Positions 4,674 through 33,082 of a stretch of 64,000 bases of DNA are shown here, in pieces. This stretch comes from an uncultured Gammaproteobacteria bacterium (GTDB taxonomy: Bacteria > Patescibacteriota > Microgenomatia > Levybacterales > UBA12049). The notes under the pieces are model-generated. The model had not been told where the DNA came from and ran no database searches. It worked only from the letters and a program-made list of their open reading frames with translations. The stretch is taken from assembly GCA_964521295.1 (NCBI GenBank), contig CAZFRF010000001.1, forward strand, positions 641,016-705,015. The letters run 5' to 3'. Each line of letters opens with the position of its first letter. The first letter of the stretch is position 1. The position numbers and the translations under genes are program-made.

Positions 4674-5610
4674 CGTTTTAAGACTGGTAAGACCTAGGCA
4701 GTGGATTAAAAATTTTGCTCTCTTTGCATCAATAACCTTCTCGGGAGAATTATTTAATTACCCTTTACTTCAAACAGTTGCCCTAGGTTTTATTGTTTTT
4801 TGTGGACTTTCCAGCGCAACTTACATAATCAATGATATATTTGATGTAAAAAAAGACAGATTACACCCTTTTAAAAAGTTTAGGCCCTTAGCTAGCGGAG
4901 ACATCCCAATTTCCTTTGGCATCAGTTTTGCAATCCTTTTAGTCATATCTTCTCTTTATTTAGCTAAAAGTATTAACCCAACTTTTTTTACAATTGGTAT
5001 CGTCTACTTAGTTATTCAAATTTTATACTCGTCCTTTATCAAATCCTTAGCTGTTGTTGACATACTCGCTTTAGCATCGGGATATATCTTAAGAGTATAC
5101 GCGGGAGAGTTTGCTAGCGGTTTCCACATTTCTGTTTGGCTCCTGCTTACAACTATTTCAATTTCTCTTTTTCTAGCAATCGGTAAAAGAAGATCTGAAC
5201 TCACTCTTTTATCAGCAAGTAAAGACATAGATATTGCCGCAACCAGAAAAAGCTTGTCGCATTATTCAGATAGGCTCTTAGATGTATATGCTTCTATTTT
5301 TGCTACCTCAACCTTTATCGCTTATTCTTTATTTACCTTCTTAGAAAACCCGGGAGGATTTAGATTAAATTTAAGTATCTTAGTGCCCGATACCTTGTCT
5401 TCATTTTTTGAAAGAAAATGGTTAATGATAACAATCATTCCTGTCGTCTACGGATTAATGCGCTATCTTCAAGATATTTATGAAAAAAACGAAGGAGAAA
5501 GTCCTGAAAAAGTATTACTTTCTGACAAACCATTACTTGCAACAGTGATTATTTGGGCAATATTAGTAGTCGTCTTAATTTATTTCGTTAGCCCTAGTTC
5601 TGCTTTTTAG
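4657..5610 (+). CDS. UbiA-family prenyltransferase, decaprenyl-phosphate 5-phosphoribosyltransferase-like (DPPR synthase-like)
   Basis: First Asp-rich motif NDIFDVKKDRLHPFKKFRPLASGDI closely matches the NDxxDxxxDRxHPxKxxRPxAxG signature of UbiA-family DPPR synthases. About 8 TM helices. Confidence 0.65.
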   Translation: MKLIYNVLRLVRPRQWIKNFALFASITFSGELFNYPLLQTVALGFIVFCGLSSATYIINDIFDVKKDRLHPFKKFRPLASGDIPISFGISFAILLVISSLYLAKSINPTFFTIGIVYLVIQILYSSFIKSLAVVDILALASGYILRVYAGEFASGFHISVWLLLTTISISLFLAIGKRRSELTLLSASKDIDIAATRKSLSHYSDRLLDVYASIFATSTFIAYSLFTFLENPGGFRLNLSILVPDTLSSFFERKWLMITIIPVVYGLMRYLQDIYEKNEGESPEKVLLSDKPLLATVIIWAILVVVLIYFVSPSSAF

Positions 5611-6436
5611 CATATTGACTACTTATCCAACCTGTTTTTCCATCTTCTAACTTAATTTCATACCAACTCTCTTCTTCGCTAACTAATTCCAATAACTCTC
5701 CAGGCTTTACTTGCGCTATCTCTTCTCCGCTTAATGAAGCACTATCTCTTACTCTTAAAAATCCAGTAGGTGTACTTAAAATTTCAACTTGATTTTTCTT
5801 TGGACTAGAAGTTACACTTGGCGTAGGAATTTTTGCTGCAGATTTAGTTGCAATATCTGAATCAATACCTAAATAAATAACTGCATCTAATTTATATCCA
5901 GGAACTGTTCTAATTCTTACCACTTTATCTTTATAACCATCTTTACTCACCTTTATCTCATGGTCAGATTCAGTCTGATTCTTAACAAGCACCGGGGAAT
6001 TTCCAGCTAAAATACTATCAACATAGACTTGAGCGTCAGTTGGAAATGAAATAACACTAATTTGTGCGTCTTTCTTATTTTCAATTTGATCTAGACCAAT
6101 AATACTGGCTTGCGCCAAAGCTGTTTGAGCAAATGATCTATCAACAACCGTTAAAACCTTTGGGTTAATAGCGATTTTTCTCTGGAAAGGCTCAAAATTT
6201 CCCTCAGTTGGCACAATTCTAATAGTATACTCACCAACCTTGAGCATGTTTTTACTATCGCAAAGACAAAGCGGAGTTGAACCCATTAATTTATCATTTA
6301 AATATACACTCGCTCTAGGCGCAGAGGTAACTTGCAAGGCTCCTTTTTCTGGCCTTGTTCCCAGAAGAAAAATGATAATAAAGAAGATTAAGACAGCAAT
6401 AATTAAACAGAAGAATATAAATAGCAACTTTTTCAC
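5594..6436 (-). CDS. Membrane-anchored protein with PEGA-like repeats and a C-terminal bacterial SH3 (SH3b) domain
   Basis: N-terminal TM helix. Two PEGA-like segments (VYLNDKLMGSTPL, VYVDSILAGNSPVLV). C-terminal SH3_3-like motif (WYEIKLEDGKTGWISSQY). Confidence 0.5.
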   Translation of the reverse strand: MKKLLFIFFCLIIAVLIFFIIIFLLGTRPEKGALQVTSAPRASVYLNDKLMGSTPLCLCDSKNMLKVGEYTIRIVPTEGNFEPFQRKIAINPKVLTVVDRSFAQTALAQASIIGLDQIENKKDAQISVISFPTDAQVYVDSILAGNSPVLVKNQTESDHEIKVSKDGYKDKVVRIRTVPGYKLDAVIYLGIDSDIATKSAAKIPTPSVTSSPKKNQVEILSTPTGFLRVRDSASLSGEEIAQVKPGELLELVSEEESWYEIKLEDGKTGWISSQYAKKQN

Positions 6437-8567: not shown

Positions 8568-9776
8568 ATGTCATTTTTATCCGGAAAAAAGCTTCTTCTG
8601 GTCGGCTTTATTATTGTGCTTTTAGTAGCAATCCCTGTTACCGTTTATTTGGTAGAACAACAACAAAGAACTAAATCTTCAGCTGAAGCTGCTACCAAAC
8701 TATCCTTAATTCAAACTCCACAAACTGTAAAGGTAGGCGAAAAAATAACCTTTGACGTTATAGCTGACCCATCAAATATAAACCAAATAGGCTTTATTAA
8801 ATTAGTCTTACTTTATGATCCGACTAAGCTTGCTACTGTTCCTGGCTCATTTGCCGTATCTCAATGGCCATCTGCAGATGGATCAACATTTACGCCAAGT
8901 ATTCCAATCGGCCCAGAATATACTGAAGGAACTATAACTGTTTCAATGTCTGTTGGTGGAAGTCCACAAAATGTTTTACAACGTAGCTCAAAAATAGCAA
9001 CCATAACCTTCGAAGCATTGGATAAAACTGATACGGGAGTACCAACTCAGGTTACCTTCGGTAATGCAACCCAAGTACTATCACTAGGAGGAACTACTAA
9101 TACAGATGAGGGGGCAATTAATATGTTATCAAATTCTTCGCCGGGGCAAGTAAATATTACAGATGAAACCGAGCCAATAACCAGCACGGTAACAACAACT
9201 ATTACAACAACAGTTACTGGAACTACAGCAACTGAAACATCAACCCCAACAGAAACTCCTACTCCAACTGAAGAGGATGGAACTACAGCAACTGAAACAT
9301 CAACCCCAACAGAAACTCCTACTCCAACATCTGCAGTTGGACTTACTTGCTCTTCTTTAACACTTGATCCAGGTGCAAATGGAACTGCGCCTTTTGCAGT
9401 TAATTTAACTGCTGTTGGAAGCAGCGCAGACTCTACTATTAGTAAAGTTTCCTTTAATTTTGGAGACGGACAAACGCAAGATGTTACCGATTCAGGAGGA
9501 GTTGGTACTAATTCGATTAGTGTATTAACATCTCATACATATGCTACAGCTGGTAATTATAATGCGAGCGCAACATTAACCGATGTTGATGGAAACTCAA
9601 CTGTTGGATCTTGTAAAACTGTTGTTGCGGTTACAGCTCAGGAGGGAGCAAGCCCAACGGTTACGATTGCTAGTCCATCTCCTCTTCCCGCAACAGGACC
9701 AACGGGCTTAATTGCAGTTGGAGCAATAGGCGTAATGCTTACATTCATAGGGGCTCTACTTCTCTTCGCTCTCTAA
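8568..9776 (+). CDS. Secreted surface protein with T/P-rich tandem linker, PKD-like domain and C-terminal LPATG sorting-like signal
   Basis: N-terminal TM/signal segment. Duplicated TTATETSTPTETPTPT linker. PKD-like signature (FNFGDGQ...SHTYATAGNYNASATLTDVDGNS). C-terminal LPATG followed by a hydrophobic tail. Confidence 0.6.
   Translation: MSFLSGKKLLLVGFIIVLLVAIPVTVYLVEQQQRTKSSAEAATKLSLIQTPQTVKVGEKITFDVIADPSNINQIGFIKLVLLYDPTKLATVPGSFAVSQWPSADGSTFTPSIPIGPEYTEGTITVSMSVGGSPQNVLQRSSKIATITFEALDKTDTGVPTQVTFGNATQVLSLGGTTNTDEGAINMLSNSSPGQVNITDETEPITSTVTTTITTTVTGTTATETSTPTETPTPTEEDGTTATETSTPTETPTPTSAVGLTCSSLTLDPGANGTAPFAVNLTAVGSSADSTISKVSFNFGDGQTQDVTDSGGVGTNSISVLTSHTYATAGNYNASATLTDVDGNSTVGSCKTVVAVTAQEGASPTVTIASPSPLPATGPTGLIAVGAIGVMLTFIGALLLFAL
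9219..9329 (+). repeat. Exact tandem duplication (51-nt copies, 60-nt period) inside the surface-protein gene linker
   Basis: ggaactacagcaactgaaacatcaaccccaacagaaactcctactccaac occurs at 9219 and again at 9279. It encodes GTTATETSTPTETPTPT twice. Confidence 0.85.
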
Positions 9777-9777
9777 T

Positions 9778-11487
9778 TTAGCCTTCAATCATTGAGAGAA
9801 GTGCTTTCTGAGGAATTTCAACTTTTGAAACATTAATAAGTCTAGATTTACCTTTCTTTTGAGCTTCTAGTAACTTATCTTTTCTTGTTCTATCTCCACC
9901 ACTCATTTTTGCCAAAACATCCTTTCTATATGGAGATATTTCAGTTCTAGCCAAAATTTTTGCACCAATTGCAGCTTGAATAACTTGTCTAAATTGCTGT
10001 CTTGGTAAGTTTTCTTTAAGCTTGTCTACCTTATCCCTTGCAACATATTCTGCTTCATCTTTATATACCAACTCTGATAAAACATCTATAGCATTTTCAT
10101 TTACCATAATATCCATTTTTACTAAGTTAGCTTCTCTAAATCCTTCTATTTCATAATCTAAGCTAGCAAAGCCTTGGGTTGCACTTTTTAAATCATTTGA
10201 TAAACCCCTAATAAACATGGAGTAAGGCATTTCATATTTTAAAATTGCGTTATTATTGTTATAAACAATATCAAGTAAAGTTCCACGTTTTTTCTGCGCT
10301 ACTGTCATAACAGCGCCAACAAAGCCTGCAGGAATAAAAATATTCAAGTTCATATATGGCTCAAGTATTTGCTCCCCCTCTTCCTTATACAAAACTCTTG
10401 GCATTGTTAATAATGGCTCAATATTTTGCTCCTTAGTAAGTCTTTCTTTAACAATTTCTGCATGCAAAAGGCCTAAGAATCCGACTCTAAAACCGCTGCC
10501 TAAAAAAGCTGAATACTCGTTAGCAACGCTTAATGAGCTATCATTTAAGGATAATTTATTTAGCGCCTCTCTTAGGTTTACATATTCGCTTGAATCTTTC
10601 GGATAAAGTCCAAAGAAAACCATTGGCTTAGGAATTTCATATCCTGACAAAGGTTCTTCAACTGCTCCTTGATAAATTACTGTATCTCCAACACGAGTTT
10701 TTCTAATATCTTTAACACCTGTCACAATATAACCTATCTCTCCAGACTCCAATGACCCCTTAGGAATTAGATATGGAGAAAAATATCCCACTTCTGAAAC
10801 ATCAACTTTTGTTCCGTTTTGTAAAAATTCAATTTTATCTCCTTTTTTAACGCTTCCGTCAACTATTTTTACAAATATTATTACGCCTCTGTGCTCATCA
10901 AAAACTGCATCAAAAACAAGCGCTCTTAAATTAGGATGTAAAGAAATTTTTGGCGCAGGAATTTTATCAACAACAGCCTGAAGTAAACCCTCAACATTTT
11001 CTCCGCTTTTAGCACTAATATAATGTATTTCCTCTGGTCTAAAGCCAAACATCTCTACTAAATCTTTTGCAACAGCTTCTGTATTTGCAGACGGTAAATC
11101 AATTTTATTAATAGCAGGAATCAAATAAAGATTTTCTTTTTTTGCACTATTATAATGCGCTACGGTTTGCGCCTGAATCCCTTTAGTTGCATCTACTAAG
11201 AGAATTGCTCCTTCAGTAGCAGCTAAAGTTCTTGAGACTTCATAGGAAAAATCCATATGACCAGGAGTGTCAATCAAATCCAACGTGTAACCCTTATACT
11301 CCATTCTAACTGGAGCGAGCTTAATAGTAATACCTCTTTCTCTAGAAATTGGATTCTGATCTAAAAATTGTTCCTGTAATTTTTCTTTAGAAATAGTTTT
11401 TGTAATCTCTAAAAATCTATCTGCCAAGGTTGATTTCCCATGATCAATATGTGCGATAATTGCAAAATTGCGAATTTTGTCTGACAT
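9778..11487 (-). CDS. lepA: Elongation factor 4 (LepA)
   Basis: N-terminal GTPase motifs (AIIAHIDHGKSTLADR, DTPGHMDF) and LepA-specific C-terminal region. 569 aa. Confidence 0.95.
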   Translation of the reverse strand: MSDKIRNFAIIAHIDHGKSTLADRFLEITKTISKEKLQEQFLDQNPISRERGITIKLAPVRMEYKGYTLDLIDTPGHMDFSYEVSRTLAATEGAILLVDATKGIQAQTVAHYNSAKKENLYLIPAINKIDLPSANTEAVAKDLVEMFGFRPEEIHYISAKSGENVEGLLQAVVDKIPAPKISLHPNLRALVFDAVFDEHRGVIIFVKIVDGSVKKGDKIEFLQNGTKVDVSEVGYFSPYLIPKGSLESGEIGYIVTGVKDIRKTRVGDTVIYQGAVEEPLSGYEIPKPMVFFGLYPKDSSEYVNLREALNKLSLNDSSLSVANEYSAFLGSGFRVGFLGLLHAEIVKERLTKEQNIEPLLTMPRVLYKEEGEQILEPYMNLNIFIPAGFVGAVMTVAQKKRGTLLDIVYNNNNAILKYEMPYSMFIRGLSNDLKSATQGFASLDYEIEGFREANLVKMDIMVNENAIDVLSELVYKDEAEYVARDKVDKLKENLPRQQFRQVIQAAIGAKILARTEISPYRKDVLAKMSGGDRTRKDKLLEAQKKGKSRLINVSKVEIPQKALLSMIEG

Positions 11488-11499
11488 AAGTAGTGTATT

Positions 11500-13167
11500 T
11501 TAGGGATTAAATCTGCTTCCGTCAATTGTTTCTTCGGATTTAGTAAGAATCTGTCTCCAGTCCCCAAGTTTTTTAAATAATAAAATAAAAGTTGTTGCCT
11601 CCTTAACATTAAATAACCAAGTTAAGAATAAATACAAACTAAATCCAATAAATCCTGAAATAGAAGTTAAAAATATTAAATTAATTGTTTTCGTTGTATC
11701 GAAAACTAACTGATCCAAAAGCTTAATTGGAACATACAATGCGAAAGCGGTAAAGAATGCTGCCGTAGTAATCTTAATAAAGCTGACCATAAAATCTTTT
11801 TTATTAAATCCTCCAACTTTAAAATTCAAGAAAATTAACATAATTAAGAAATTTAAAACTGAACCTATTGAATATGCTAGAGCAATACTTTCAATTCCTA
11901 AATGATAAAAGAATATAAAAATAACTCCCAAGGCAATCATTACGAAAGTAGTTAAGCTACCAACCAATAAGGGAGTTTTTGTATCATGCAAAGCGTAGAA
12001 TCCCCTAGAGATTAAATAAATTAATGCTTGAGCAAATAAAGAGATGCTAAAAAATGCCAGTGTTCTTCCCGTTAACACCGTTGCTTGCCAATCAAAGGCA
12101 GACGCTCCATACACAAGCCTTACTAGAGGAATTCTTAAAACCAAAAATACTACTGATATAGGTAAAATAAGATAAAAAAGCTGATAAAAACTTGTCATAA
12201 AAGTCAGCTTAAAATCTTCCAGTTTATCTTTTTCCTTTGCCAATACCGGAAAAGCTGCTTGAGCAATTGCCTGGCCTATTAAAGCAACTGGCGCAAACGC
12301 AAGAGTTTGCGCAAGATCAAATATGAAATAATTTCTTCCGGGATTTTGTAAAAACGAAACTAGAGTAACAGTTGCAAGTGTTCCTAATTGAAAAACACCA
12401 ATCGAAATGGTTCTTGGCCAAATTAATTTAAAAAAATCAGTTACCCCCGAGGTTTTAATAAAATCTCTTGACAGATTAGGCCTAAAATTAAAACCCAGTT
12501 TCTTAATTAAGGGCAATTGAATTATTACAAAAATTAACGCTCCAAATATTACCCCGTAGGCCGCTGAGTATATTCCCACGAGCGGAGACAGCACTAGAAT
12601 AGAAATAATAATACCAAGATTATAAGAAGCAGAAGCTATACCTGGTACAAAAAAATGATTATAAGATTGAAGAATTGCTGATAAAAAACTACCAATTATA
12701 AACACTATTTCTCCAAAAATAACTATTCTAGTCAGATTTGTCATGAGCTCTAATTGTTCAACAGAAAAACCAGGGGCGAGTAACTTAGAGATACTACCTG
12801 CAAAAATAAAATAGATTATTGAAAATATCGAAAAGACCACCAAGCTTAGACATAAAAGAGTAGAAGCTATTTTATGTGCATCTCCTTCTCTGTTCTTGAC
12901 TAAATAATCTGAAAAAATTGGAATAAATGCAGATGACAGAGCGCCTGCAATAATAAGCTGAAATAAAAATTCCGGCACTCTAGTGGAGGCAAAGTAGATG
13001 CCCACTGTATTGGAAGGACCAAAAATAGATGCCAAAAGTCTTAATCTGATAACACCAAGCACTTGTGAAAGAATAATTGTCGTCATTATTACAAAAGCAG
13101 CAGAAATAATGTTGCTTTGCCTTTGCAATATAAGACTAAGGCCTTTTTTGAAAAAATCTTTAGGCAT
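11500..13167 (-). CDS. murJ: Lipid II flippase MurJ (MviN family)
   Basis: 555 aa with 14-TM MOP-superfamily topology. MviN-like N-terminus (ISAAFVIMT...LGVIRLRLLASIFG). Confidence 0.8.
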   Translation of the reverse strand: MPKDFFKKGLSLILQRQSNIISAAFVIMTTIILSQVLGVIRLRLLASIFGPSNTVGIYFASTRVPEFLFQLIIAGALSSAFIPIFSDYLVKNREGDAHKIASTLLCLSLVVFSIFSIIYFIFAGSISKLLAPGFSVEQLELMTNLTRIVIFGEIVFIIGSFLSAILQSYNHFFVPGIASASYNLGIIISILVLSPLVGIYSAAYGVIFGALIFVIIQLPLIKKLGFNFRPNLSRDFIKTSGVTDFFKLIWPRTISIGVFQLGTLATVTLVSFLQNPGRNYFIFDLAQTLAFAPVALIGQAIAQAAFPVLAKEKDKLEDFKLTFMTSFYQLFYLILPISVVFLVLRIPLVRLVYGASAFDWQATVLTGRTLAFFSISLFAQALIYLISRGFYALHDTKTPLLVGSLTTFVMIALGVIFIFFYHLGIESIALAYSIGSVLNFLIMLIFLNFKVGGFNKKDFMVSFIKITTAAFFTAFALYVPIKLLDQLVFDTTKTINLIFLTSISGFIGFSLYLFLTWLFNVKEATTFILLFKKLGDWRQILTKSEETIDGSRFNP

Positions 13168-13175
13168 AAAAAGTG

Positions 13176-13204
13176 TTGTTTTATACAGTATAACATGCTA
13201 AAAT
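13176..13204 (+). promoter_or_regulatory. rpsT promoter TTGTTT-17-TAAAAT ending 6 nt before the ATG (probable leaderless transcript)
   Basis: -35 at 13176-13181, -10 at 13199-13204, ATG at 13211. There is no Shine-Dalgarno sequence. Confidence 0.5.
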
Positions 13205-13210
13205 AGCGAC

Positions 13211-13507
13211 ATGCCACTAATAAAGTCAGCAAAGAAAAAGTTAAGAAAAGACATAAAAAGAACTGAAAGAAATGCTAAAACAAAAATTTCGCTTTCTAAG
13301 GCTCTTAAAAATGCTGCTAAAAAACCAACTCAAGAATCAGTAAAAACTGCAGCTAAACTGGCTGACATTGCAGCTAAGAACAAAATCATTCACAAAAATA
13401 AAGCTGCTAGAATTAAATCTAAACTTTCAAAATTGATTAAAACTCCGGTTAAAAAAGCAGAAACACCAAAAACAAATAAAACTAAGACTTCTAAGGCTAA
13501 AAAATAA
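13211..13507 (+). CDS. rpsT: 30S ribosomal protein S20 with Lys-rich C-terminal extension
   Basis: N-terminus MPLIKSAKKKLRKDIKRTERNAKTKIS matches the S20 signature (IKSAxKRxxxxxKRRxxN). Small and basic. Confidence 0.8.
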   Translation: MPLIKSAKKKLRKDIKRTERNAKTKISLSKALKNAAKKPTQESVKTAAKLADIAAKNKIIHKNKAARIKSKLSKLIKTPVKKAETPKTNKTKTSKAKK

Positions 13508-13554
13508 CTTTTTCTTTTGACAAACAAGCCAAATTCCCCTAGACTAAAATTGGT

Positions 13555-14121
13555 ATGTCAAAAAAAAATATCTCCATAAATTTAATCAAAGACCAAAAAA
13601 ATGATATAGTCGAAAGAATTATCAATTGGTCGCTTAGTATCGGTAGGATCCTAGTAATCGCCACAGAACTGGTTGCACTACTTGCGTTTCTTTGGAGATT
13701 CGGACTCGATCAACAATTAATTGATCTACACACACAAATTAAGCAAAAACAGGTAATTGTTGCTGCTTTTAAAAAACAAGAGGATGAATATAGAAACCTA
13801 CAGGACAGACTAAGCATTGCTTCTAATTTTTCTACAATCCAGGAAAAGAACCAACAAGATCTTAAAGCGATATTAAATATCGGCACAAAATATGCAAGTT
13901 TTAACAAAATTTCTAATTCAAGTAATAAAATTTCAATGGAAATTAATATTCCCTCTGTTATTTCATTAAGCAATTTAGTAAATGAAATAAAAAGCTATCC
14001 CTCTACTCAGAACATCAGTATTGATAAGATTGAAACTAAAACAAGCAGTGGAATAATTATCGTAGGAATATCTGTGTATCTAAAACCATTGGCAACAAAA
14101 TATGCAACTGAAAATCAATAA
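13555..14121 (+). CDS. PilN-like bitopic membrane protein (type IV pilus alignment-complex-like)
   Basis: Short cytoplasmic N-terminus with an INLIK motif resembling the PilN INLLP box. One TM helix, then a coiled-coil periplasmic segment. Confidence 0.45.
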   Translation: MSKKNISINLIKDQKNDIVERIINWSLSIGRILVIATELVALLAFLWRFGLDQQLIDLHTQIKQKQVIVAAFKKQEDEYRNLQDRLSIASNFSTIQEKNQQDLKAILNIGTKYASFNKISNSSNKISMEINIPSVISLSNLVNEIKSYPSTQNISIDKIETKTSSGIIIVGISVYLKPLATKYATENQ

Positions 14122-14713
14122 AATTTTTACATCCGTAAATAAAGAAAAATATGGTAAGTACTTAGAGCTTATTCCAGATTTTAAAAAAGAAAAGGCTCAA
14201 AAATTTACAACTATTGTATTAACAATTGTGGCAGTCATTATTTTAGCAATATTCGCAATCAATCCCACGCTATCAACAATTGCAAATCTAAACAAGCAAC
14301 TTGAGGATGCGAGATTCGTATCAAAAAGATTACAAGATAAAATTAACGACTTATCTATATTACAATCAAAATTTAACAGCATACAAGAAGATTTACCCTT
14401 AATTTACGAATCTGTTCCGAAAAAATCTGAAGCACCAAAAATTACTGGACAAATTCAAGCAATTGCCCAAGCAGCTAATGTTACTATAATAAGCACTCAA
14501 ATAAGCAACATTACTCAAGCACAAGCTAAATTTTACTATTTAGATTTTAATATTACATTAACTGGATCATATGAAAATATCATAAATTTCATAGACCAAT
14601 TAAGTAATTCTCAAAGAATTACATATATTTATAACGTTAGCATTACTAAGGGACAAAAAGAGGGTGAAGCATTAAGAGTTAATGTAAAAGGACAGGCCTT
14701 TTTCAAAGAGTAA
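14102..14713 (+). CDS. PilO-like bitopic membrane protein
   Basis: Single TM helix followed by a long coiled-coil and an alpha/beta region. Overlaps the PilN-like ORF. Confidence 0.35.
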   Translation: MQLKINKIFTSVNKEKYGKYLELIPDFKKEKAQKFTTIVLTIVAVIILAIFAINPTLSTIANLNKQLEDARFVSKRLQDKINDLSILQSKFNSIQEDLPLIYESVPKKSEAPKITGQIQAIAQAANVTIISTQISNITQAQAKFYYLDFNITLTGSYENIINFIDQLSNSQRITYIYNVSITKGQKEGEALRVNVKGQAFFKE

Positions 14714-14714
14714 C

Positions 14715-15044
14715 ATGAAAAGAAAAGATATTTTAATCATACTAATTCCAAGCTTAATTGTTGTTATTTTATGGGTAATTTTTAGCGTTTTTCATAACTA
14801 TATTAACTCCACAATTCCTAATGATATTAATATGCAAATCTTATCTATTAATCCCGATTTTGACACAGATACTATAAATAAAATTAAATCTAGGTCAACT
14901 ATTGATCCTATCTATACCTTCGAACAATCTACTGTAGACGAAGCTTCTCTCGATGAAAACCCTTCTCCTACACCAAGTGTAAACCCACCTACGGTAAGCA
15001 CTTCAAGCGCAAAAATAGCTAGCGACGAAGGAGCATTGGAATAA
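14715..15044 (+). CDS. Small membrane-anchored protein with Pro/Ser/Thr-rich tail (PilP-like position)
   Basis: 109 aa, N-terminal TM helix. 1-nt gaps or overlaps with its neighbours. Confidence 0.3.
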   Translation: MKRKDILIILIPSLIVVILWVIFSVFHNYINSTIPNDINMQILSINPDFDTDTINKIKSRSTIDPIYTFEQSTVDEASLDENPSPTPSVNPPTVSTSSAKIASDEGALE

Positions 15045-16459
15045 TGAAACAACATTTTTGGAATAAACGCATTCCAACTTTATTGGGTATTTTTTTAATC
15101 GGCGTAGGCATAATCGTTACAACCATCCTAGTTAAACAAGGTGGTTTTTTATCAATTAACGCTAGCCCAACTACTCAACCAAAAAATGTAAGAATAACAA
15201 ATATTACCCATGATAGTTTTACGGTTTCTTATGAAACTCAAGATTCGGTTTTCGGGGTTATTAGTTATGGAACAAGTATTGAATTAGGCAAATCGGGACT
15301 CGACGATCGAGACCAGGAAACCGGAAACATATCGGCACATAAATTACATAACATTACAGTCAGAAATTTAACCCCTGAAACCAAGTATTATTTTTCAATC
15401 ATTAGCGGAAAGGATACATTTCTAAACACAGACAGTCCTTATGAGGTGACTACCGGAATAGAGATTTCCGAATCACCTACTGAGCAGGAACCAGTTAGCG
15501 GCAGGATTCTTCTTCCCAATGGAAAACCTCCAGCTGAAAGCATTATCTACTTAACCACAGAGGGAACTCAAATAATATCATCTTTAGTTAAAAATGACGG
15601 AACTTTTGTTATCCCTCTTAATTCCTTACGAACAACAGATTTAATCTCCTATAGCACTCTTAGCGAGAATCAAATTCTCAAACTATTAATAACTGGCGAT
15701 AACAGTCAAACATCAAGCGTCATTATTTCATTAGATCAAATCCAGCCTATTCCACCCATCTCCTTAGGTAGTAACTACGACTTCACACAAAGTGAAAAAA
15801 AAACAGCAACCAACTCTGCAGTACTCGAGGTATTTCCATCCTTCTCCAGCACAGAAAAAACAGTTGAAACCAATAACGGACCCAAAATAATAACTCCCGA
15901 AAGAAATGCAGAAATTCCCGATCAAAAACCAAAATTTACTGGTACAGCAAACCCTAACGAAACAATTCAGGTAATTATTCATTCAGATGAGAAAATTCAA
16001 GTAGATGTAAAAACAGATTCAAAAGGCAATTGGAGCTATAGACCAACAAAAGATCTTTCTCCTGGTAACCATACTATTACTGTAGTTGCAAAAGACAAAA
16101 ATGGAATATTAAAAACAATTATCCAATCCTTCGTTGTTTATGCTTCGGGTAGTCAACTAGAAGGAGAGACAGGCTCACCAACCCCTACTGTCAAACCTCA
16201 AGCAACAAAAACGATAACACAAACGCCAACCCATACTCCAACTACAGCACCCAATATAACAACAAACACGCCTACAACTGAGCCAATTGATAGTAATAAC
16301 GTTGTTACCATCACAGAAGCAGCAACTAAATCTCCAACCCCAACTACCCCTTTACCTCCAACCGGGAATCCTACTATAATGAGCTTCGGTATAGTTGGAT
16401 TAGTAGTTACCATGTTAGGTAGTCTTCTATTTCTTCTATCTAGAAAAAATAGCATATGA
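15044..16459 (+). CDS. LPXTG cell-wall-anchored surface protein with FN3-like and Ig-like domains
   Basis: N-terminal TM/signal. FN3-like segment (NVRITNITHDSFTVSYET...KYYFSI). T/P-rich linker. Canonical C-terminal sorting signal LPPTG plus hydrophobic stretch plus SRKNSI positive tail. Confidence 0.7.
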   Translation: MKQHFWNKRIPTLLGIFLIGVGIIVTTILVKQGGFLSINASPTTQPKNVRITNITHDSFTVSYETQDSVFGVISYGTSIELGKSGLDDRDQETGNISAHKLHNITVRNLTPETKYYFSIISGKDTFLNTDSPYEVTTGIEISESPTEQEPVSGRILLPNGKPPAESIIYLTTEGTQIISSLVKNDGTFVIPLNSLRTTDLISYSTLSENQILKLLITGDNSQTSSVIISLDQIQPIPPISLGSNYDFTQSEKKTATNSAVLEVFPSFSSTEKTVETNNGPKIITPERNAEIPDQKPKFTGTANPNETIQVIIHSDEKIQVDVKTDSKGNWSYRPTKDLSPGNHTITVVAKDKNGILKTIIQSFVVYASGSQLEGETGSPTPTVKPQATKTITQTPTHTPTTAPNITTNTPTTEPIDSNNVVTITEAATKSPTPTTPLPPTGNPTIMSFGIVGLVVTMLGSLLFLLSRKNSI

Positions 16460-17739
16460 AGATAGCAATAATTGGAGCCGGTTTTACAGGGCTTTCTGCT
16501 GCCTGGGAGTTAGTTAAAAATAATCATGATGTATATATATATGAAAAGGATACATATCCAGGAGGGCTCGCTATTGGTTATCAGGAAAAAAAATGGAATT
16601 GGTCCCTAGAAAAACACTATCATCATTGGTTTACTAATGATAAAAGCGTTTTGGATCTTGCGGAAGAAATAAAATTTAAAGTTATAGTAAAAAGGCCAAA
16701 AACTACTGTTTTAATTCAAGATAAAATTTACCAACTAGATTCTCCACTTACTGTATTAAGATTTCCTTTAATGTCTTTCCTGTCTAGAATAAGAATGGCT
16801 GCAGTAATCGGCTTTTTAAAATTCAATCCATTATGGAAACCTTTGGAAAAATACAAAGCCGCAAAAGTATTACCACTTCTTATGGGAAAAAAGGCATATG
16901 AGATGATTTGGGAGCCCTTATTCATAAATAAGTTTGGTAAATATACAAGTAATATTTCACTCGCCTGGTTTTGGGCGAGAATTACTAAAAGAACTCCATC
17001 TCTTGCTTATCCAAAAGGGGGATTTTTAAATTTTGCAAACGCTTTGACAAAAACAATAAAAATAAAAAAAGGCAAATTTTTCTTTGATACAGAAATACTT
17101 GATTTAAAAGAAGATAAAAAATTAATCCTGACAATAAAAGACAAAAATGAAAAAATCACGCAAGAGGAATTTGATAAAATTATCGTTACAACTCCTTCAT
17201 TTTTATTCTTAAAAATTGCAAAAAACTTACCTAATGAATATAAAAATAAACTCGGAAAACTACATGGCCTGGGAGCAACAAATCTAGTTCTTAGACTCAA
17301 AAAACCATTCTTTAACGATAGTACCTATTGGGTAAGTGTCTGCGATAAAAATGCACCCGTAATGGCAATTGTCGAACACACTAACTTCATGAATAAAAAG
17401 TTCTACAATAATGAAAGTATTTTATATTTAGGTAATTACCGAGATTCCAATGATATTTATTTCCAAATGAATGAAGATCAAATGCTTAATCATTTCGATA
17501 CTTTTCTAAAAAAAATTAACCCTGAATACAAAAAAAACATAATCAGTAAAAAATTGTTTAAATCCCCATTTGCTCAGCCAATCATTCCAATTAATTATTC
17601 CAAAATATTACCTAAATTTATAACTCCTATTAAAAATGTATACTTAGCCAACATCGAACAAGTTTATCCATGGGATAGAGGTACAAATTATGCGGTTGAA
17701 TTAGGTCAGAAAGTTGTAAAAATTGCCCTAGATGAATAA
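16456..17739 (+). CDS. FAD-dependent oxidoreductase, UDP-galactopyranose mutase (Glf)-like / amine-oxidase superfamily
   Basis: N-terminal Rossmann dinucleotide motif IAIIGAGFTGLSAA...YEKDTYPGG. HxFHTND-like HWFTNDK. KQWG-like NKFGK block followed by the PKGG motif. Confidence 0.6.
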   Translation: MKIAIIGAGFTGLSAAWELVKNNHDVYIYEKDTYPGGLAIGYQEKKWNWSLEKHYHHWFTNDKSVLDLAEEIKFKVIVKRPKTTVLIQDKIYQLDSPLTVLRFPLMSFLSRIRMAAVIGFLKFNPLWKPLEKYKAAKVLPLLMGKKAYEMIWEPLFINKFGKYTSNISLAWFWARITKRTPSLAYPKGGFLNFANALTKTIKIKKGKFFFDTEILDLKEDKKLILTIKDKNEKITQEEFDKIIVTTPSFLFLKIAKNLPNEYKNKLGKLHGLGATNLVLRLKKPFFNDSTYWVSVCDKNAPVMAIVEHTNFMNKKFYNNESILYLGNYRDSNDIYFQMNEDQMLNHFDTFLKKINPEYKKNIISKKLFKSPFAQPIIPINYSKILPKFITPIKNVYLANIEQVYPWDRGTNYAVELGQKVVKIALDE

Positions 17740-19351
17740 ATTATTTCAATTTATAAAATCTAATAAAATAGAAACACTTATTGCTTTATTAGCCGTCTGT
17801 TTTTCAACTTGGTTAATGTTTTCATCATTTAACGTAAGCGAAGGAAATATGCAAATATCTGCAAAATCATGGAGCGATTTTGCTAGCCACATACCCTTAA
17901 TTAGATCCTTTTCTCTAGGCTCCAATCTACCACCTGAATATCCATTATTTGCAGGACCAGCTATTAAATATCATTATCTATTCTATTTAGTCGTAGGCGT
18001 GTTAGAAAGAATAGGGGTTAGGATTGATTTTGCCTTAAATATTCCCTCAATTATAGGTTTTGCTTCGTTAATATTTATGATTTATCTTTTTGCAAAAGAA
18101 ATTTTTAAATCTAAAATGGTTGGCATTATAAGTATTTTTTTGTTTTTATTTAATAGCTCATTAAGTTTTATTAATTTTTTTCGAGAACATTCTTTCTCAA
18201 TTCAGGAGATAATTTTAAATAAAGACTTTACGAATTTTGGTCCGTATGACGGAGGAGTAATATCAGCTTTTTGGAATTTAAATATTTACACAAACCAAAG
18301 ACACCTAGCCTTAGCCTATGCACTTTCCCTACTAATCATCTACACATTCTTAAAACTACATACTACAAATCATAAAAATGCATATGAAAAAACACTAATT
18401 ATTGGAATTGTACTTGGGTTATCTTTCATATTAAACATGGCTGTATTTTTAATGACAATTTCTGTTCTTATAACATTAATGCTATTTCTAAAACATCAAA
18501 GAAAATATATTTTTATATCTTTAATGTTATCTGGAGTAATTGCGCTGCCCTTTTACTTATATCAAATCTCCACGCCATCTATGGCGCCCATCACTTTTTG
18601 GCCTGGATATTTAGTAACTGATCTATCGATTATTAATTTCATTAATTATTGGGTACAAAATATCGGCCTCAATATAGTTTTAATACCAATTGGATTTATT
18701 ATCGCAAAAAAAATTCAGAAAAAAATATTAATTGCGTTTTTCAGCATTTTTATAATCGGAAATATCTTGAAATTTTCACCTGAAATTGCAGCCAATCATA
18801 AATTTTTCAATTTCTTTATTATCGTTTCAGCTATGTTCTCTGCAAATTTACTTGTTAGTTTATGGAAAAAACATGACACACTAAAGCCAATAACTATATT
18901 ATTATTTTTAGGATTAATTCTTTCAGGAATTATTGATTTTTTCCCAATATATAATGATCGAAAAATTACACTTGAAGATTATACAAACAATCCAAGTATT
19001 AGATGGATAAAAAATAGCACTCCTAGCGACTCTATTTTTTTAAACTCGCAATATTTATATAACTACGCGAATATCGCAGGTAGAAGAATATTTTTGGGAT
19101 GGCCATACTTCTCTTGGTCACAGGGGTACAATACAGAAGCAAGAGATAATCTAAGAAAAAAAATGTTAAACACTAATGATCTATCATTTTTTTGCAGCAA
19201 CGCAACAAATTATAAATTAAATTATATCGATATTAATACACGAAACGAAGATGCAATGGTAAATTTAAATTTTTTTGAGAAAAACTTTAAAAAGGTATAT
19301 GAAAATATGAAGGATGGATTTATAATCTACAGTATTAATTCAAAATGCTAA
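17732..19351 (+). CDS. Polytopic membrane protein, GT-C-like glycosyltransferase candidate
   Basis: 539 aa with at least 12 TM helices and large loops. Overlaps the Glf-like gene and the downstream YYY-domain gene. Confidence 0.4.
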   Translation: MNKLFQFIKSNKIETLIALLAVCFSTWLMFSSFNVSEGNMQISAKSWSDFASHIPLIRSFSLGSNLPPEYPLFAGPAIKYHYLFYLVVGVLERIGVRIDFALNIPSIIGFASLIFMIYLFAKEIFKSKMVGIISIFLFLFNSSLSFINFFREHSFSIQEIILNKDFTNFGPYDGGVISAFWNLNIYTNQRHLALAYALSLLIIYTFLKLHTTNHKNAYEKTLIIGIVLGLSFILNMAVFLMTISVLITLMLFLKHQRKYIFISLMLSGVIALPFYLYQISTPSMAPITFWPGYLVTDLSIINFINYWVQNIGLNIVLIPIGFIIAKKIQKKILIAFFSIFIIGNILKFSPEIAANHKFFNFFIIVSAMFSANLLVSLWKKHDTLKPITILLFLGLILSGIIDFFPIYNDRKITLEDYTNNPSIRWIKNSTPSDSIFLNSQYLYNYANIAGRRIFLGWPYFSWSQGYNTEARDNLRKKMLNTNDLSFFCSNATNYKLNYIDINTRNEDAMVNLNFFEKNFKKVYENMKDGFIIYSINSKC

Positions 19352-21465
19352 ATATAAGTTCTGCTGATTTTAATCATATTATTAGCTGGTGGATACATTT
19401 ACTTTTATTAGGAATTATATTTATTCCTATTACTTCTTTAATATTTAATAAATTCAAAGACAAAGGTTATATATTTACTAAAATAATCTCTTTAATTTTT
19501 ATTTCCTATACTATCTTTACAGCGGGCACTTTAAAGATCTTAAATTTTTCATTTCCGAATTTGATATTTATATTAGTAATTTTTGGATTCATAAACTTAC
19601 TAGTTTTTAAACGAAATAACTCAATTAAAAATCTACTCAGAGATCTTAAATTCTTTATAATCGAAGAGATCATCTTTCTATTAACACTTATTTTTTGGTG
19701 TTTTATTAGAGGAAATCAACCAGACATTCATGGGTTAGAAAAATTTATGGACTTTGGAATGGTTAATTCTATACTTAGAACTGACTTTTTTCCTGTTAAT
19801 GATATTTGGTACTCAGGCTTAACAATCAATTATTATTATTTTGGTCACCTAATGACTGCTGTAATAATAAAATTATCAAATGTTCCTTCTTACATCGGCT
19901 ACAATCTAATGATCTGCACTCTGTTTGCATTAACATTTACGTCAGTAATCTCTTTAGCTATTAATTTATTCAATAATCTAAAGATCTCCAGCAAATCCTT
20001 AATAGCTGGCATACTTTCTGCATCACTGGTAGCTTTAAGCGGAAACCTTACGTCAATTTATACTTTTTTTAAAGCCTATGTTAACGAACATCCGGTTCCA
20101 TTTTGGAAGTTAGAATTTCTACCTTTTACTTTTCCAAATAATTTCTGGTATCCTAATGCAACAAGATTTATTCCCTATACTATCCATGAATTTCCTCTTT
20201 ATTCTTTTGTAGTTTCTGATCTTCACGGACATGTACTAGATATACCAGTTGTCTTATTTACAATTGCTTTTGTTTTTAGCTTGTTTTTAAAACAACAGAT
20301 TAAGAAAATTGACCTTTTGTTTATTGGTTTTCTTGCTGCTGTTATGTATATGACAAACGCTTGGGATGGACTCATATACACCCTCCTCGGACTAATTATT
20401 CTTTTATATCTAATGTTTGTTAAAGATCACAAGATAGTTATTAAAAAAGAAAATCTTATTAATTTTTCAATAAATCTAACATCTCTTTTTATGGGTTTTG
20501 TTTTATTCTCTTTACCTTTTAGCGCAAATTTTAAACCTTTTGTTTCAGGTATTGGAGTCATGTGCGCCCCAAGCGCATTAACCAATCTCGGAAAACTAGG
20601 TCCATTTTTATTTGAAGCAAACCATTGCCAAAAATCCCCAATTTGGCAACTAGTAATTTTATACGGATTTTTTTATTTTTTTGTGATTACGTTTTTGATC
20701 TTTCTGAAATCTCGACAAAAAAATACCCACACTTTTTCCGATAAATTTATTCTCTTTTTAATTTTATTGTCTACATTATTAATAATAATCCCAGAATTTA
20801 TATACATAAAAGATATTTATCCCATGCATTACAGAGCAAATACTATGTTTAAATTAACTTACGAAGCATTTATTATGCTTTCTATTGCATGTGGATATAT
20901 AATTTTAAGAATATTTTCCGGATTAAAAAATAAATTATTAGTATTTATATTTTTCATATTTTCTTTAATACTTATCTATCTTGTATTAAGCTATCCAATA
21001 TTCGCCATAAACTCATATTATAATAATTTAAAAAATAATCCTAACTTAGATGGTTTGAGATATATGCAGAAAAATCATCCAAACGATTATGATTTAATAA
21101 ATTGGATAAATAAAAATATAGACAAACAAACAATAATACTAGAATCAGCAGGTGACTCATACACAGATTACGCAAGAATATCGGCTAATACCGGTATACC
21201 AACAATAATTGGCTGGTCAGTCCACGAATGGCTATGGAGAGGAACATACGATGTTGTAGGACCAAGGGTTAATGATGTTCAAACAATTTATACTTCAAAT
21301 AATCTTGAGCAAGTTAAGAATCTTCTTGCGAAATACAAGGTAAAATACATAGTTGTATCAAGCCTAGAAAGAGAAAAATATAAAACTTTAAATGAAAATA
21401 ATTTTAAAAAAATTGCTAAATTAGTCTATGATAAAAAAGGTGCGAGATTATATAAGCTTAATTAG
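19345..21465 (+). CDS. YYY-domain membrane protein (DUF2298 / chlor_Arch_YYY family), GT-C-like
   Basis: 706 aa polytopic protein with the characteristic motif INYYYFGHLM, followed by a soluble C-terminal domain. Confidence 0.55.
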   Translation: MLNISSADFNHIISWWIHLLLLGIIFIPITSLIFNKFKDKGYIFTKIISLIFISYTIFTAGTLKILNFSFPNLIFILVIFGFINLLVFKRNNSIKNLLRDLKFFIIEEIIFLLTLIFWCFIRGNQPDIHGLEKFMDFGMVNSILRTDFFPVNDIWYSGLTINYYYFGHLMTAVIIKLSNVPSYIGYNLMICTLFALTFTSVISLAINLFNNLKISSKSLIAGILSASLVALSGNLTSIYTFFKAYVNEHPVPFWKLEFLPFTFPNNFWYPNATRFIPYTIHEFPLYSFVVSDLHGHVLDIPVVLFTIAFVFSLFLKQQIKKIDLLFIGFLAAVMYMTNAWDGLIYTLLGLIILLYLMFVKDHKIVIKKENLINFSINLTSLFMGFVLFSLPFSANFKPFVSGIGVMCAPSALTNLGKLGPFLFEANHCQKSPIWQLVILYGFFYFFVITFLIFLKSRQKNTHTFSDKFILFLILLSTLLIIIPEFIYIKDIYPMHYRANTMFKLTYEAFIMLSIACGYIILRIFSGLKNKLLVFIFFIFSLILIYLVLSYPIFAINSYYNNLKNNPNLDGLRYMQKNHPNDYDLINWINKNIDKQTIILESAGDSYTDYARISANTGIPTIIGWSVHEWLWRGTYDVVGPRVNDVQTIYTSNNLEQVKNLLAKYKVKYIVVSSLEREKYKTLNENNFKKIAKLVYDKKGARLYKLN

Positions 21466-22609
21466 AAGATTTAGCTGGAATAGTACAATTCCCTCTATTA
21501 ATCTCGCAGTTTAAATAAGTCTTTATTTCTGAAAAGTTTCCATTTCCCACTCTAGGCACTAATACAGAAAGAAAGTCATATTCACTTGAAATTGGAGCCT
21601 CTTCTAGTAATCCAGGCCTATTATTTATATAATCTCCAATATCAACTGTAGCATTATTAATCTTTGCCCCTCTCATTTTCTGAGCTAATCTAATAAAGTC
21701 ATCAAACTCTTCGGAAGTAATATCTGTATCAATACTATCCTTAATAACTGTATAAAGATTAATTATTCTACCCGGATTTATTAATGTCTCTGCAGAGAAA
21801 ACTTTATCTCTAAAAGCTGTAATTATCTTTTGCTGCCTTTTACTTCTTGCGAAATCACCACTCTCAACTCCCAATGCATGCCTAGATCTAACATATTCCA
21901 AAGCAGTTTCGCCATCCATATGATTTGGTCCCTTGTTAAAATGTAAGTGCTTGTATCTACACGCAAACTTTTCCTGTAATTCGACCTCAGCAGAAGTGGT
22001 AGCTACGAAAGCAGTAATTTCCTCATCTGTGAATCCACACTTATCATCTTCCTTTCCAGAAATTGGATACTCATAATCATCAAAGGTGTTATCGATGTTT
22101 ATTTCTAGGCCTCCGATAATATCAACTGCCTCAACGAAGCCCGAGAAATCAATTCTAACCGCATAATCTATTGTTTGACCCGTTACCTTCCCCACAACTG
22201 CCTTTGCCAAGCTTAACCCTCCACCTTTACGCTTTTGCTCGCCTTCATTATAGGCTTCATTTATTTTTTTAACAGACGTTGCAAGATCTGGAACCCATAA
22301 ATCCCTAGGAATAGATGCCAGAGTAACTCTATTTTTTGCCTCATCTAAATTAGCTAATATTATTGTGTCTGTTAGATTAGGACCATCGTGTCTTCCTCCA
22401 CCAATGCCTAATAATAAAATATTTATTTTTGTTGGGGTTGACTGTTTGAGCTTTACTTCCTTATCAAACATCAAATGAAATATAAATGGATAAAAAGATG
22501 CTGTTTTCCAAACAAAAATACCCAGTATCACAACCACAAAAACACCAGCAATAATAATTCGCCTTCTTTTTTTAAGCATTTTGGATAATCTTAACAAACT
22601 CTTGTGCAT
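21458..22609 (-). CDS. LytR-CpsA-Psr (LCP) family glycopolymer-peptidoglycan ligase
   Basis: N-terminal TM plus LCP core motifs (LLLGIGGGR...LTDTIILANLD...TLASIPRDLWV). The start may be at the second Met (MLKK). Confidence 0.8.
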   Translation of the reverse strand: MHKSLLRLSKMLKKRRRIIIAGVFVVVILGIFVWKTASFYPFIFHLMFDKEVKLKQSTPTKINILLLGIGGGRHDGPNLTDTIILANLDEAKNRVTLASIPRDLWVPDLATSVKKINEAYNEGEQKRKGGGLSLAKAVVGKVTGQTIDYAVRIDFSGFVEAVDIIGGLEINIDNTFDDYEYPISGKEDDKCGFTDEEITAFVATTSAEVELQEKFACRYKHLHFNKGPNHMDGETALEYVRSRHALGVESGDFARSKRQQKIITAFRDKVFSAETLINPGRIINLYTVIKDSIDTDITSEEFDDFIRLAQKMRGAKINNATVDIGDYINNRPGLLEEAPISSEYDFLSVLVPRVGNGNFSEIKTYLNCEINRGNCTIPAKSSN

Positions 22610-26827: not shown

Positions 26828-27307
26828 TTATTTGTAAGACACAATTTCCAATTCGGTTGGGAAAATTGATTTCATCCTAAATGGGGTAACATTTTTTGTC
26901 TGATAAAATATCTCTGCAATTTGCAAGACGTTTTCCAAAGCCTCCTTTGCCGATTCCATCTCTATGCCTTGTCGCGCTTTTGCAGTCGCCTTGAATGCAT
27001 TAGCAAATAATGTTTTCAAATTTGAATATTTACTAAAATGCTCTTCTTTAAAATAATCATTCATTAATGTCATCAACTCCTCTTCCAATCTATTTGCATG
27101 CTCCTCTTTAACATGCGTTACTCTTGCAATATCATGCTCTGCTTTTACTTCATTATCCCTGTTAATATCGAGCAGAAAAGATGTCATCCTAATTATGGTA
27201 TGTGCGGCTAATTGAGCTGGGTTAGGGTCATATAGGCCGCATGGAATATCGCAATGCGCAAAGGCGACTTTTTCTGGAAAAAATTTACTGAGTAAACTGT
27301 TTAACAT
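26828..27307 (-). CDS. sodN: Nickel superoxide dismutase precursor
   Basis: Short propeptide, then the Ni-hook motif HCDIPCGLYDP (HCxxPCGxY) and a four-helix-bundle-length body of 159 aa. Confidence 0.85.
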   Translation of the reverse strand: MLNSLLSKFFPEKVAFAHCDIPCGLYDPNPAQLAAHTIIRMTSFLLDINRDNEVKAEHDIARVTHVKEEHANRLEEELMTLMNDYFKEEHFSKYSNLKTLFANAFKATAKARQGIEMESAKEALENVLQIAEIFYQTKNVTPFRMKSIFPTELEIVSYK

Positions 27308-33081: not shown

Positions 33082-33082
33082 T

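Follow-up and report, generated by a model that had tools for sequence, protein, structure and literature searches.

Two predicted exported proteins of a Levybacteria genome

The window, a 64-kb stretch of DNA, is part of the genome of a Levybacteria bacterium, a member of the Microgenomatia within the candidate phyla radiation (CPR). Its G+C content is about 32%, it encodes GroEL/GroES, LepA, MurJ, and S20, and the closest matches of its proteins were found in Levybacteria metagenome bins. Sixty-eight open reading frames (ORFs) were counted as genes, and their 20,048 residues together were the base of the motif statistics. Two of these genes are considered here, namely P1 (ORF 8568–9776) and P2 (ORF 15044–16459). 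A first-pass annotation of the window had described them as large secreted proteins with sortase-like tails. Both ORFs were found at these coordinates, and they contain the only two LPxTG motifs of the window, each followed by a hydrophobic helix. P1 and P2 are probably core envelope proteins of this lineage and not accessory adhesins, and P2 is the last gene of a predicted operon that also encodes PilN and PilO. A locus of the Levybacteria type was also present in many metagenome-assembled genome records titled "uncultured Gammaproteobacteria bacterium" (L003, L004, L007, L008, L011, and others), which looks like bulk mislabelling.

Relatives of the two proteins were collected on three scales. 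The 120 closest homologues listed for each family were the base of the counts among close relatives. Comparison loci were 80 related P2 loci, with one genome per species, and 78 GTDB species loci reached the DNA upstream. A second census of P2 tails was made with 97 full-length representatives of 50% clusters, taken from a profile search of 1.84 billion representatives in which giant Big_13 repeat proteins dominated the matches. The P1 and P2 families were confined essentially to Levybacteria and close Microgenomatia, the P1 family being centred on Levybacteria, and their lengths were uniform (about 355–520 amino acids [aa] for P1 and about 430–515 aa for P2). Both genes are single-copy across Levybacteria, and their synteny is fixed as GroES-P1-LepA-MurJ-S20-pilN-pilO-small-P2, where "small" is the gene of a 109-aa protein. 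Across 62 species-level loci, the median identity to the window protein was 52% for S20, 43% for PilN, 40% for PilO, 41% for the small protein, and 44% for P2; it was 41% for P1 (38 loci). The pace at which P1 and P2 diverge is that of PilN and PilO. The features of the two genes are as follows.

8568–9776, forward strand: P1, 402 aa, predicted to be exported, monocistronic between groES and lepA (both on the reverse strand); ORF, Pfam PKD, and AlphaFold2 model with a mean predicted local distance difference test score (pLDDT) of 82
8694–9161, forward strand: N-terminal beta-sandwich of P1 with a cohesin fold, 155 residues (residues 43–198); Foldseek against the PDB
9180–9317, forward strand: Thr/Pro/Glu-rich disordered stalk of P1; AlphaFold2 pLDDT <50 at residues 211–247
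9330–9635, forward strand: PKD domain of P1, residues 255–356; Pfam PKD and PKD_4, AlphaFold2 strands
9684–9773, forward strand: C-terminal signal of P1, LPATG (9684–9698) and then PTGLIAVGAIGVMLTFIGALLLFAL, with no basic tail
15044–16459, forward strand: P2, 471 aa, fourth gene of the pilN-pilO-small-P2 module
15176–16141, forward strand: ectodomain of P2, consisting of FN3 (residues 45–137), a second beta-sandwich (150–250), and a Big_13 Ig-like domain (280–366)
16151–16351, forward strand: Thr/Pro-rich disordered stalk of P2, residues 370–436 (about 70 residues); pLDDT about 40
16352–16456, forward strand: C-terminal signal of P2, LPPTG (16352–16366), hydrophobic helix, and SRKNSI

P1 begins with an N-terminal hydrophobic helix, and the near-invariant Ala (A39) after this helix fits a signal peptidase I site. 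Cohesins were the top PDB matches of the N-terminal domain in Foldseek (2w1n, E 2.8e-10; 1g1k, target-normalised TM-score 0.79 and root-mean-square deviation 4.0). The Cohesin profile PF00963 did not match the window P1 at E<=1, and precomputed matches to it were present for many P1 homologues. Residues 205–250 were left disordered by AlphaFold2. An imperfect 18-nt tandem repeat was detected by Tandem Repeats Finder within the stalk (9229–9316), and a homologue with 95% identity (P0122) is 20 aa shorter, which suggests that the length of the stalk varies by repeat number. The PKD domain was recognized by Pfam PKD (26.7 bits, E 5.6e-6; cut-off 23.5), and its Cys261 and Cys349 are invariant in the family alignment.

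According to its model, P1 can be regarded as a cohesin-fold plus PKD surface scaffold, which probably docks another protein or a glycan at the cell surface. Sortase-anchored single-cohesin scaffoldins are known as ScaE-type proteins of Ruminococcus flavefaciens. P1 is similar in that it combines a single domain of cohesin fold with a linker and a signal of the LPxTG type at its C-terminus, the layout of a scaffoldin that anchors to the cell surface. Unlike ScaE, the window P1 has no significant Pfam Cohesin match and has an extra PKD domain, and neither a dockerin-like partner nor a cellulosome context was found. Dockerin-type calcium loops were sought by a crude regular-expression scan of the window and the 80 loci, which are partial genomes, and nothing convincing was obtained; the single ORF that matched lies outside the window and its loops are unpaired. 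A further protein for comparison is PamR of the CPR Pam pilus, an RbmA-like terminator/anchor with two beta-sandwich domains and a C-terminal transmembrane (TM) helix; it was proposed to be a surface-structure tether (bioRxiv 10.64898/2026.03.03.709456). P1 gave weak RbmA fold matches and a 16-bit NCBIfam match, and it is not a member of this family. The identification as PamR (NF058578) was rejected, since the score of 16.1 bits compares with an equivalog cut-off of 300 and covers only residues 294–345, within the PKD domain. The other Pam-pilus models had no match among the 17 window proteins that were scanned against NCBIfam.

For P2, three beta-sandwich domains, each with pLDDT >90, were predicted by AlphaFold2, flanked by two terminal helices. 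Pfam recognized fn3 (E 1e-6) and Big_13 (E 7e-12), and the second beta-sandwich is CarboxypepD_reg-like in homologues (PF13620, precomputed). The PKD-like fold of P1, the FN3-like fold of P2, and the Thr/Pro-rich stalks of both, all suggested at first from the letters alone, were thereby confirmed, and the stalks were disordered in both AlphaFold2 models. In P2 the disorder spans residues 370–440, and it is in the stalk that the family alignment is hypervariable. Its N-terminal segment behaves differently (15044–15160; FWNKRIPTLLG...): K8, I10, P11, and G15 are invariant, and the segment is recognizable even at 26% overall identity, including L076–L079. Such conservation is unusual for a mere signal peptide, and the segment may stay in place as an anchor or serve for recognition. 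The N-terminal hydrophobic helix is followed by an invariant Ala (A40) that fits a signal peptidase I site. P2 may be cleaved after Ala40, or its N-terminus may be kept as a second anchor.

C-terminal tails and the sortase

P1 terminates with ...SPLPATGPTGLIAVGAIGVMLTFIGALLLFAL, ending in LLLFAL with no K or R past the helix, and P2 terminates with ...TPLPPTGNPTIMSFGIVGLVVTMLGSLLFLLSRKNSI, which is laid out as LPPTG-NPTIMSFGIVGLVVTMLGSLLFLL-SRKNSI and has a basic tail. This difference had been noted correctly in the first-pass annotation. The two LPxTG motifs are located 25 (P1) and 30 (P2) residues from the C-terminus, where about 30–40 residues is typical of LPXTG substrates, and a separate six-frame scan of the window revealed the same two and none other. 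Based on composition, 0.27 such motifs were expected anywhere and 0.04 in C-terminal zones. Thus, the LPxTG tails exceed chance. The stretch after each motif has a mean Kyte-Doolittle hydropathy >2.5, and AlphaFold2 placed C-terminal helices at residues 381–401 of P1 and 443–468 of P2.

Among the closest P2 homologues listed, 77 of 120 retained LPPTG(N), and about 80% did when the related LPxTG/LPxAG forms were included. Considering that the motif is kept among close homologues beside a hypervariable stalk, it appears to be functional in this clade. LPPTG or LPATG was present in 70 of the 120 close P1 homologues listed, together with other xxTGP variants. The P1 family consensus is (L/M/I)(P/A/V)xTGP followed by a helix ending in FAL; [TS]G was retained in 29 of 38 P1 loci, more often than in P2, while the preceding residues drift (LAPTG, MVPTG, NEQTG).

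The enzymes that would be needed for wall anchoring are also encoded in the window.

43759–44340, reverse strand: membrane-anchored sortase, 193 aa; Pfam Sortase (PF04203) 1.3e-19
25100–26038, forward strand: FemAB-family peptidyltransferase, cross-bridge builder; Pfam FemAB 7.5e-30, weak NCBIfam FemX-like match
21458–22609, reverse strand: LCP (LytR-CpsA-Psr) family ligase; Pfam 2.5e-33
11500–13167, reverse strand: MurJ lipid II flippase; 71% identical to an orthologue (L001) with a precomputed PF03023 match
36036–36554, forward strand: secreted protein with an SLT / Rpf-type transglycosylase domain; Pfam SLT 6.2e-10, PF06737 28.4 bits against a cut-off of 27

The sortase, FemAB, MurJ, LCP, and Rpf-like genes listed in the first-pass annotation were all recovered by Pfam or by orthologue match. 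They support the view that the window codes for a monoderm, Gram-positive-type wall toolkit, although the general picture had already been published. CPR envelopes were described as Gram-positive-like and without PilQ (PMC6744442; PMC7143001), and the sortase family is reported to be almost universal among Microgenomates (PMC6744442). The present analysis names two concrete candidate substrates. The window has no second sortase, and the one it has adjoins neither of them. Its motifs IAGH and LITC aligned with His120 and Cys184 of Staphylococcus aureus SrtA, for which an approximate query sequence was used, and the downstream Arg occurs in KRLVVYS, outside the aligned stretch. The best NCBIfam class was F (134 bits against a cut-off of 166), while class E reached 22 bits. 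A sequence search of the PDB with the sortase gave no match at E<=0.001.

Compared with the LPXTG proteins of Firmicutes and Actinobacteria (SrtA; class E/F), P1 and P2 share a putative export signal, an Ig-like ectodomain, a Pro/Thr-rich wall-spanning stalk, and LPxTG with a hydrophobic helix; the basic tail is shared by P2 only. The enzyme shares with housekeeping sortases the membrane anchor, the two motifs, the downstream Arg, and the presence of a FemAB-type enzyme in the same genome. Unlike in Firmicutes and Actinobacteria, the tails narrowly miss the cut-offs of TIGR01167 and PF00746, a basic tail is absent from the P1 family members listed, only part of the orthologues keep the motif, and the sortase does not reach the class F cut-off and has no PDB relative detectable by sequence, in a host that is a CPR bacterium. 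Taken together, the motif, its retention in the clade, and the enzymes make sortase anchoring of P1 and P2 plausible in this lineage.

Several results count against this conclusion. The sortase lies 27 kb away and falls short of the class F cut-off. Full-length P1 and P2 had no match to an LPXTG model of Pfam or NCBIfam at E<=1, and isolated tails stayed under the thresholds of TIGR01167 (P2 15.7 bits, P1 13.8–15.1; cut-off 15.9) and PF00746 (P2 16–16.9 bits, P1 8.1; cut-off 20). None of the 120 P1 family members listed (P1 and 119 homologues) has K or R at the end. The P2 tails of the 80 species-level orthologues were divided among [LIVM]PxTG (28), Px[TSA]G (15), xPG forms (21), and none of these (16), and the corresponding numbers among the 97 cluster representatives were 26, 17, 27, and 27. 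The xPG forms included SSPGN, IPPPGN, and LAPGGNSPGPDGK, with SPGN and PPPGN as other variants listed. P2 orthologues thus often lack the Thr at the scissile position, and those furthest removed (Pace-/Woesebacteria, 26–28% identity) have a plain TM helix and a cytoplasmic tail. Because a joint loss of the scissile Thr in P1 and P2 would point to a shared enzyme, their correlation per genome was tested; the table of 15/14/2/7 was not significant (Fisher p = 0.15), and the data are phylogenetically non-independent.

The scores below the cut-offs, the P1 family without a basic tail, and the P2 orthologues without the Thr or with a plain TM helix favour the alternative that there is no sortase processing. 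In that case, the C-terminal helix would be a permanent anchor, Pro-x-x-Gly a helix cap, and LPxTG a lineage-specific spelling of it, and P1 and P2 would be bitopic or doubly anchored. A parallel exists in the CPR Pam pilus, where PamC, PamD, and PamR are reported to be anchored by C-terminal TM helices (bioRxiv 10.64898/2026.03.03.709456). Nevertheless, the exact LPxTG is retained in the clade next to a hypervariable linker, the only two LPxTG of the window are both found at the expected distance from the C-terminus, an encoded sortase with catalytic-type motifs needs substrates, and P2 bears a classical basic tail. We regard the permanent anchor as possible but rather doubtful. The profile check of the sorting signals went neither clearly for nor clearly against them. 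Both tails are formally under the curated cut-offs, yet they are near misses, as TIGR01167 or PF00746 was among the best matches of the isolated tails (E 0.006–0.03 against the whole libraries), and these models are expected to lean to sequences of Firmicutes and Actinobacteria. As for the possibility that the proteins are held in the membrane, the many P2 orthologues with xPPG or a plain TM anchor speak for it, and the LPxTG kept among the close homologues in this clade speaks against it.

Since the P2 motif is variable across orthologues and none of the 120 P1 family members listed has a basic tail, wall anchoring does not appear to be conserved in either family. By sequence, what both families appear to conserve is a C-terminal helix behind a Pro/Gly-containing element, with true LPxTG in only some lineages including this one. 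As the C-terminal element of other members has drifted to xPPG or a plain TM anchor, the conserved need would be tethering at the membrane-wall interface, and covalent linkage would be lineage-specific.

The pilN-pilO module and the probable role of P2

P2 is preceded by three genes on the same strand.

13517–13545, forward strand: promoter-like site, TTGACA, 17-nt spacer, and TAGACT, just 5' of pilN; pattern match only
13555–14121, forward strand: PilN-type protein, 188 aa; ISINLIK motif at the N-terminus, a single TM helix, a coiled coil, and a C-terminal domain
14102–14713, forward strand: PilO, 203 aa; PF04350 1.4e-13 (51.7 bits against a cut-off of 22), T2SSM_b 2.3e-6
14715–15044, forward strand: small bitopic protein, 109 aa; TM helix, conserved segment of about 45 aa, and disordered tail

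The PilN-type protein of the window had no Pfam match. Its positional orthologues passed PF05137 (cut-off 22.8) with 41.6 bits in L076, 43.3 in L078, and 24.1 in L065, and the N-termini of orthologues read INLLP, INLVP, or INLLK. Homologues of PilO carry the NCBI name "type 4a pilus biogenesis protein PilO". The 120 best matches listed for PilO look like the same Levybacteria family, and this search is silent on P2-like partners elsewhere. The small protein did not match any Pfam or NCBIfam family, and 76 sources had its gene between pilO and P2. The overlap of pilN with pilO is 20 nt long, the start of P2 has one base in common with the stop codon of the small gene, and the next gene starts (16456) within the stop of P2. 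No terminator-like site was found along the run from pilN to P2. The spacing of these genes indicates that pilN through P2 form a translationally coupled operon. Promoter-like sites in this region were no commoner than in shuffled sequence in a consensus scan.

Among the 78 GTDB species loci reaching the upstream DNA, the order pilN>pilO>small>P2 was kept almost without exception. It was also kept in L076–L079 (Pace-/Woesebacteria, 26–28% identity), where the neighbouring S20 is inverted. Because the order survives this inversion at such low identity, it reflects more than inherited local synteny. No description of the pilN-pilO-small-P2 module was found in the papers that were searched.

The known system closest to this module is PilM-PilN-PilO-PilP-PilQ of type IVa pili, with GspL/GspM in the type II secretion system (T2SS). 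The shared part is PilN followed by PilO with overlapping genes. In diderm operons, pilP and pilQ follow pilO; here, the small gene and P2 hold those positions. Unlike pilMNOPQ, the window module has no PilM, PilP, or secretin and lies apart from any pilus ATPase or pilin gene, its third gene encodes a 109-aa bitopic protein, and its fourth encodes a string of three beta-sandwich domains that ends in a tail of the sortase type. The resemblance is to the first two genes only. A published type IV pilus locus of Microgenomates lists PilA/B/C/D/M/T and does not list PilN and PilO (PMC7143001), and the separate encoding of PilN/PilO observed here is compatible with that locus.

Downstream, a flavin adenine dinucleotide (FAD) amine-oxidase-like gene (16456–17739) follows P2 without a gap, with overlapping starts and stops, and is followed by two polytopic DUF2298 membrane proteins (17732–19351 and 19345–21465, forward strand), all overlapping. 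Of the 81 sources searched, 58 had the FAD gene 3' of P2. Its place is taken in L001 by a 392-aa membrane protein, and a convergent PMT-family glycosyltransferase lies just beyond. One may speculate that the genes after P2 serve to glycosylate the Thr/Pro stalks or to make a polymer of the wall.

From domain architecture, motif and clade conservation, the presence of wall-anchoring enzymes, operon membership, gene order, and substitution rate, we infer a function for the two proteins. Judged by its gene context, P2 most likely assists the alignment complex of the type IV pilus from outside the cytoplasm, as an accessory protein. We give somewhat better than even credence to the overall picture in which P1 and P2 are envelope proteins of the conserved core, P2 is pilus-linked, and both are sortase-anchored in this lineage. 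P1 and P2 would be exported via the N-terminal hydrophobic segment, and their beta-sandwich domains would be displayed on the disordered Thr/Pro-rich stalk. The C-terminal helix would keep the protein in the membrane until the single membrane-anchored sortase (43759–44340) cleaved between Thr and Gly and moved the protein onto lipid II or the peptidoglycan cross-bridge built by the FemAB-type enzyme. P2 would work with the PilN/PilO platform and extend into the wall, and in monoderm cells without PilP or PilQ it would fill their role. P1 may act as a cohesin-type docking scaffold.

Some observations reduce the confidence in the pilus part of this picture. PilM, PilB, PilC, PilT, and pilin genes are all absent from the 64-kb window, and a motif scan of the 80 loci revealed neither a PilB/PilT-type Walker A nor a prepilin N-terminus within 7 kb of P2. 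With no other pilus genes nearby, the link to type IV pili is provided by PilN and PilO alone. When the P2 model was compared with the PDB by Foldseek, only generic tandem FN3/Ig arrays were obtained and no functional analogue.

P1 and P2 had been presented in the first-pass annotation as a defined set of surface adhesins that would suit an epibiotic or attached lifestyle. On this assumption, they would be displayed by sortase for binding to a host cell or a surface, and P2 would be next to pilN and pilO through inherited synteny only. It agrees with the adhesin-type domains (PKD, FN3, Big_13), the Thr/Pro stalks that bear them, and the LPxTG tails; giant repetitive proteins resembling adhesins are matched by the Big_13 profile as well, and CPR bacteria are generally thought to be attached to other cells (PMC11623550). 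However, host-specific adhesins are expected to be more variable, while P1 and P2 are single-copy, uniform in length, and as divergent as PilN and PilO, so this explanation is weakened. Furthermore, the order pilN-pilO-small-P2 outlasts its flanking synteny, the genes appear to be translationally coupled, and the folds permit no statement on ligand binding. Considering also the fixed synteny of both genes, the adhesin claim was not supported, and we consider it unlikely. As the last gene of the predicted pilN-pilO operon, P2 is probably not a free-standing adhesin.

A more specific version of the pilus link can be proposed, although we hold it only tentatively and think it has a small chance of being right. 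P2 might be an undescribed structural subunit of the Microgenomatia type IV pilus machine, with its N-terminal helix retained beside PilN/PilO and its C-terminal Thr joined to peptidoglycan by sortase in the LPPTG lineages. Membrane and wall would then be linked covalently by a tether or collar in place of PilP/PilQ, with the 109-aa protein as an adaptor. It is very improbable that P2 is instead cargo, with the PilN/PilO machine serving as a Gram-positive type II secretion piston that pushes a folded protein of about 45 kDa through peptidoglycan before it is anchored: type IV pilus genes of Clostridium perfringens are required to secrete the large matrix protein BsaC through the wall (PMC11580942) and the PilO of the window also matches T2SS GspM models, but strict order and coupling across very divergent genomes are unexpected for a cargo gene, and tethering of P2 at the C-terminus and possibly also at the N-terminus would hinder a piston-type release.

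If P2 is a pilus accessory of the core envelope, the pilN-pilO-small-P2 module, whose order is kept in at least 75 species-level genomes, is a candidate for supporting a pilus across a wall without a secretin. P1 and P2, if they are true sortase targets, would provide testable substrates for an uncharacterised CPR sortase. These results also suggest caution, because CPR proteins with FN3, PKD, or Ig domains are not all host adhesins.

Other genes of the window

Several other genes were noted. Adjoining groEL, the gene at 5594–6436 (reverse strand) encodes a probable envelope or wall-binding protein of 280 aa, in which PEGA and bacterial SH3 domains were recognized. A membrane protein of the Phage_holin_4_2 family (29880–30218, reverse strand; 2e-33) lies amid housekeeping genes, with no phage context seen. 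The 436-aa protein at 60671–61981 (reverse strand) has a C-terminal OmpR-type winged helix (Trans_reg_C) as its sole recognizable domain and is without a receiver domain. Three genes at 30828–33556 (reverse strand) make up a compact redox module of membrane flavoproteins; they encode a 511-aa fusion of an RnfD/NqrB-like membrane part and a FAD/NAD-binding part, the flavin transferase ApbE, and a protein of the FMN_bind type. This CPR genome also encodes a nickel superoxide dismutase (Sod_Ni, 7e-34) at 26828–27307 (reverse strand), with a LUD-domain protein and an HxlR regulator as neighbours. Finally, a eukaryotic-type DNA topoisomerase IB (34964–36004, forward strand) was recognized by Topoisom_I (2e-40) together with a bacterial Top1B N-terminal domain.

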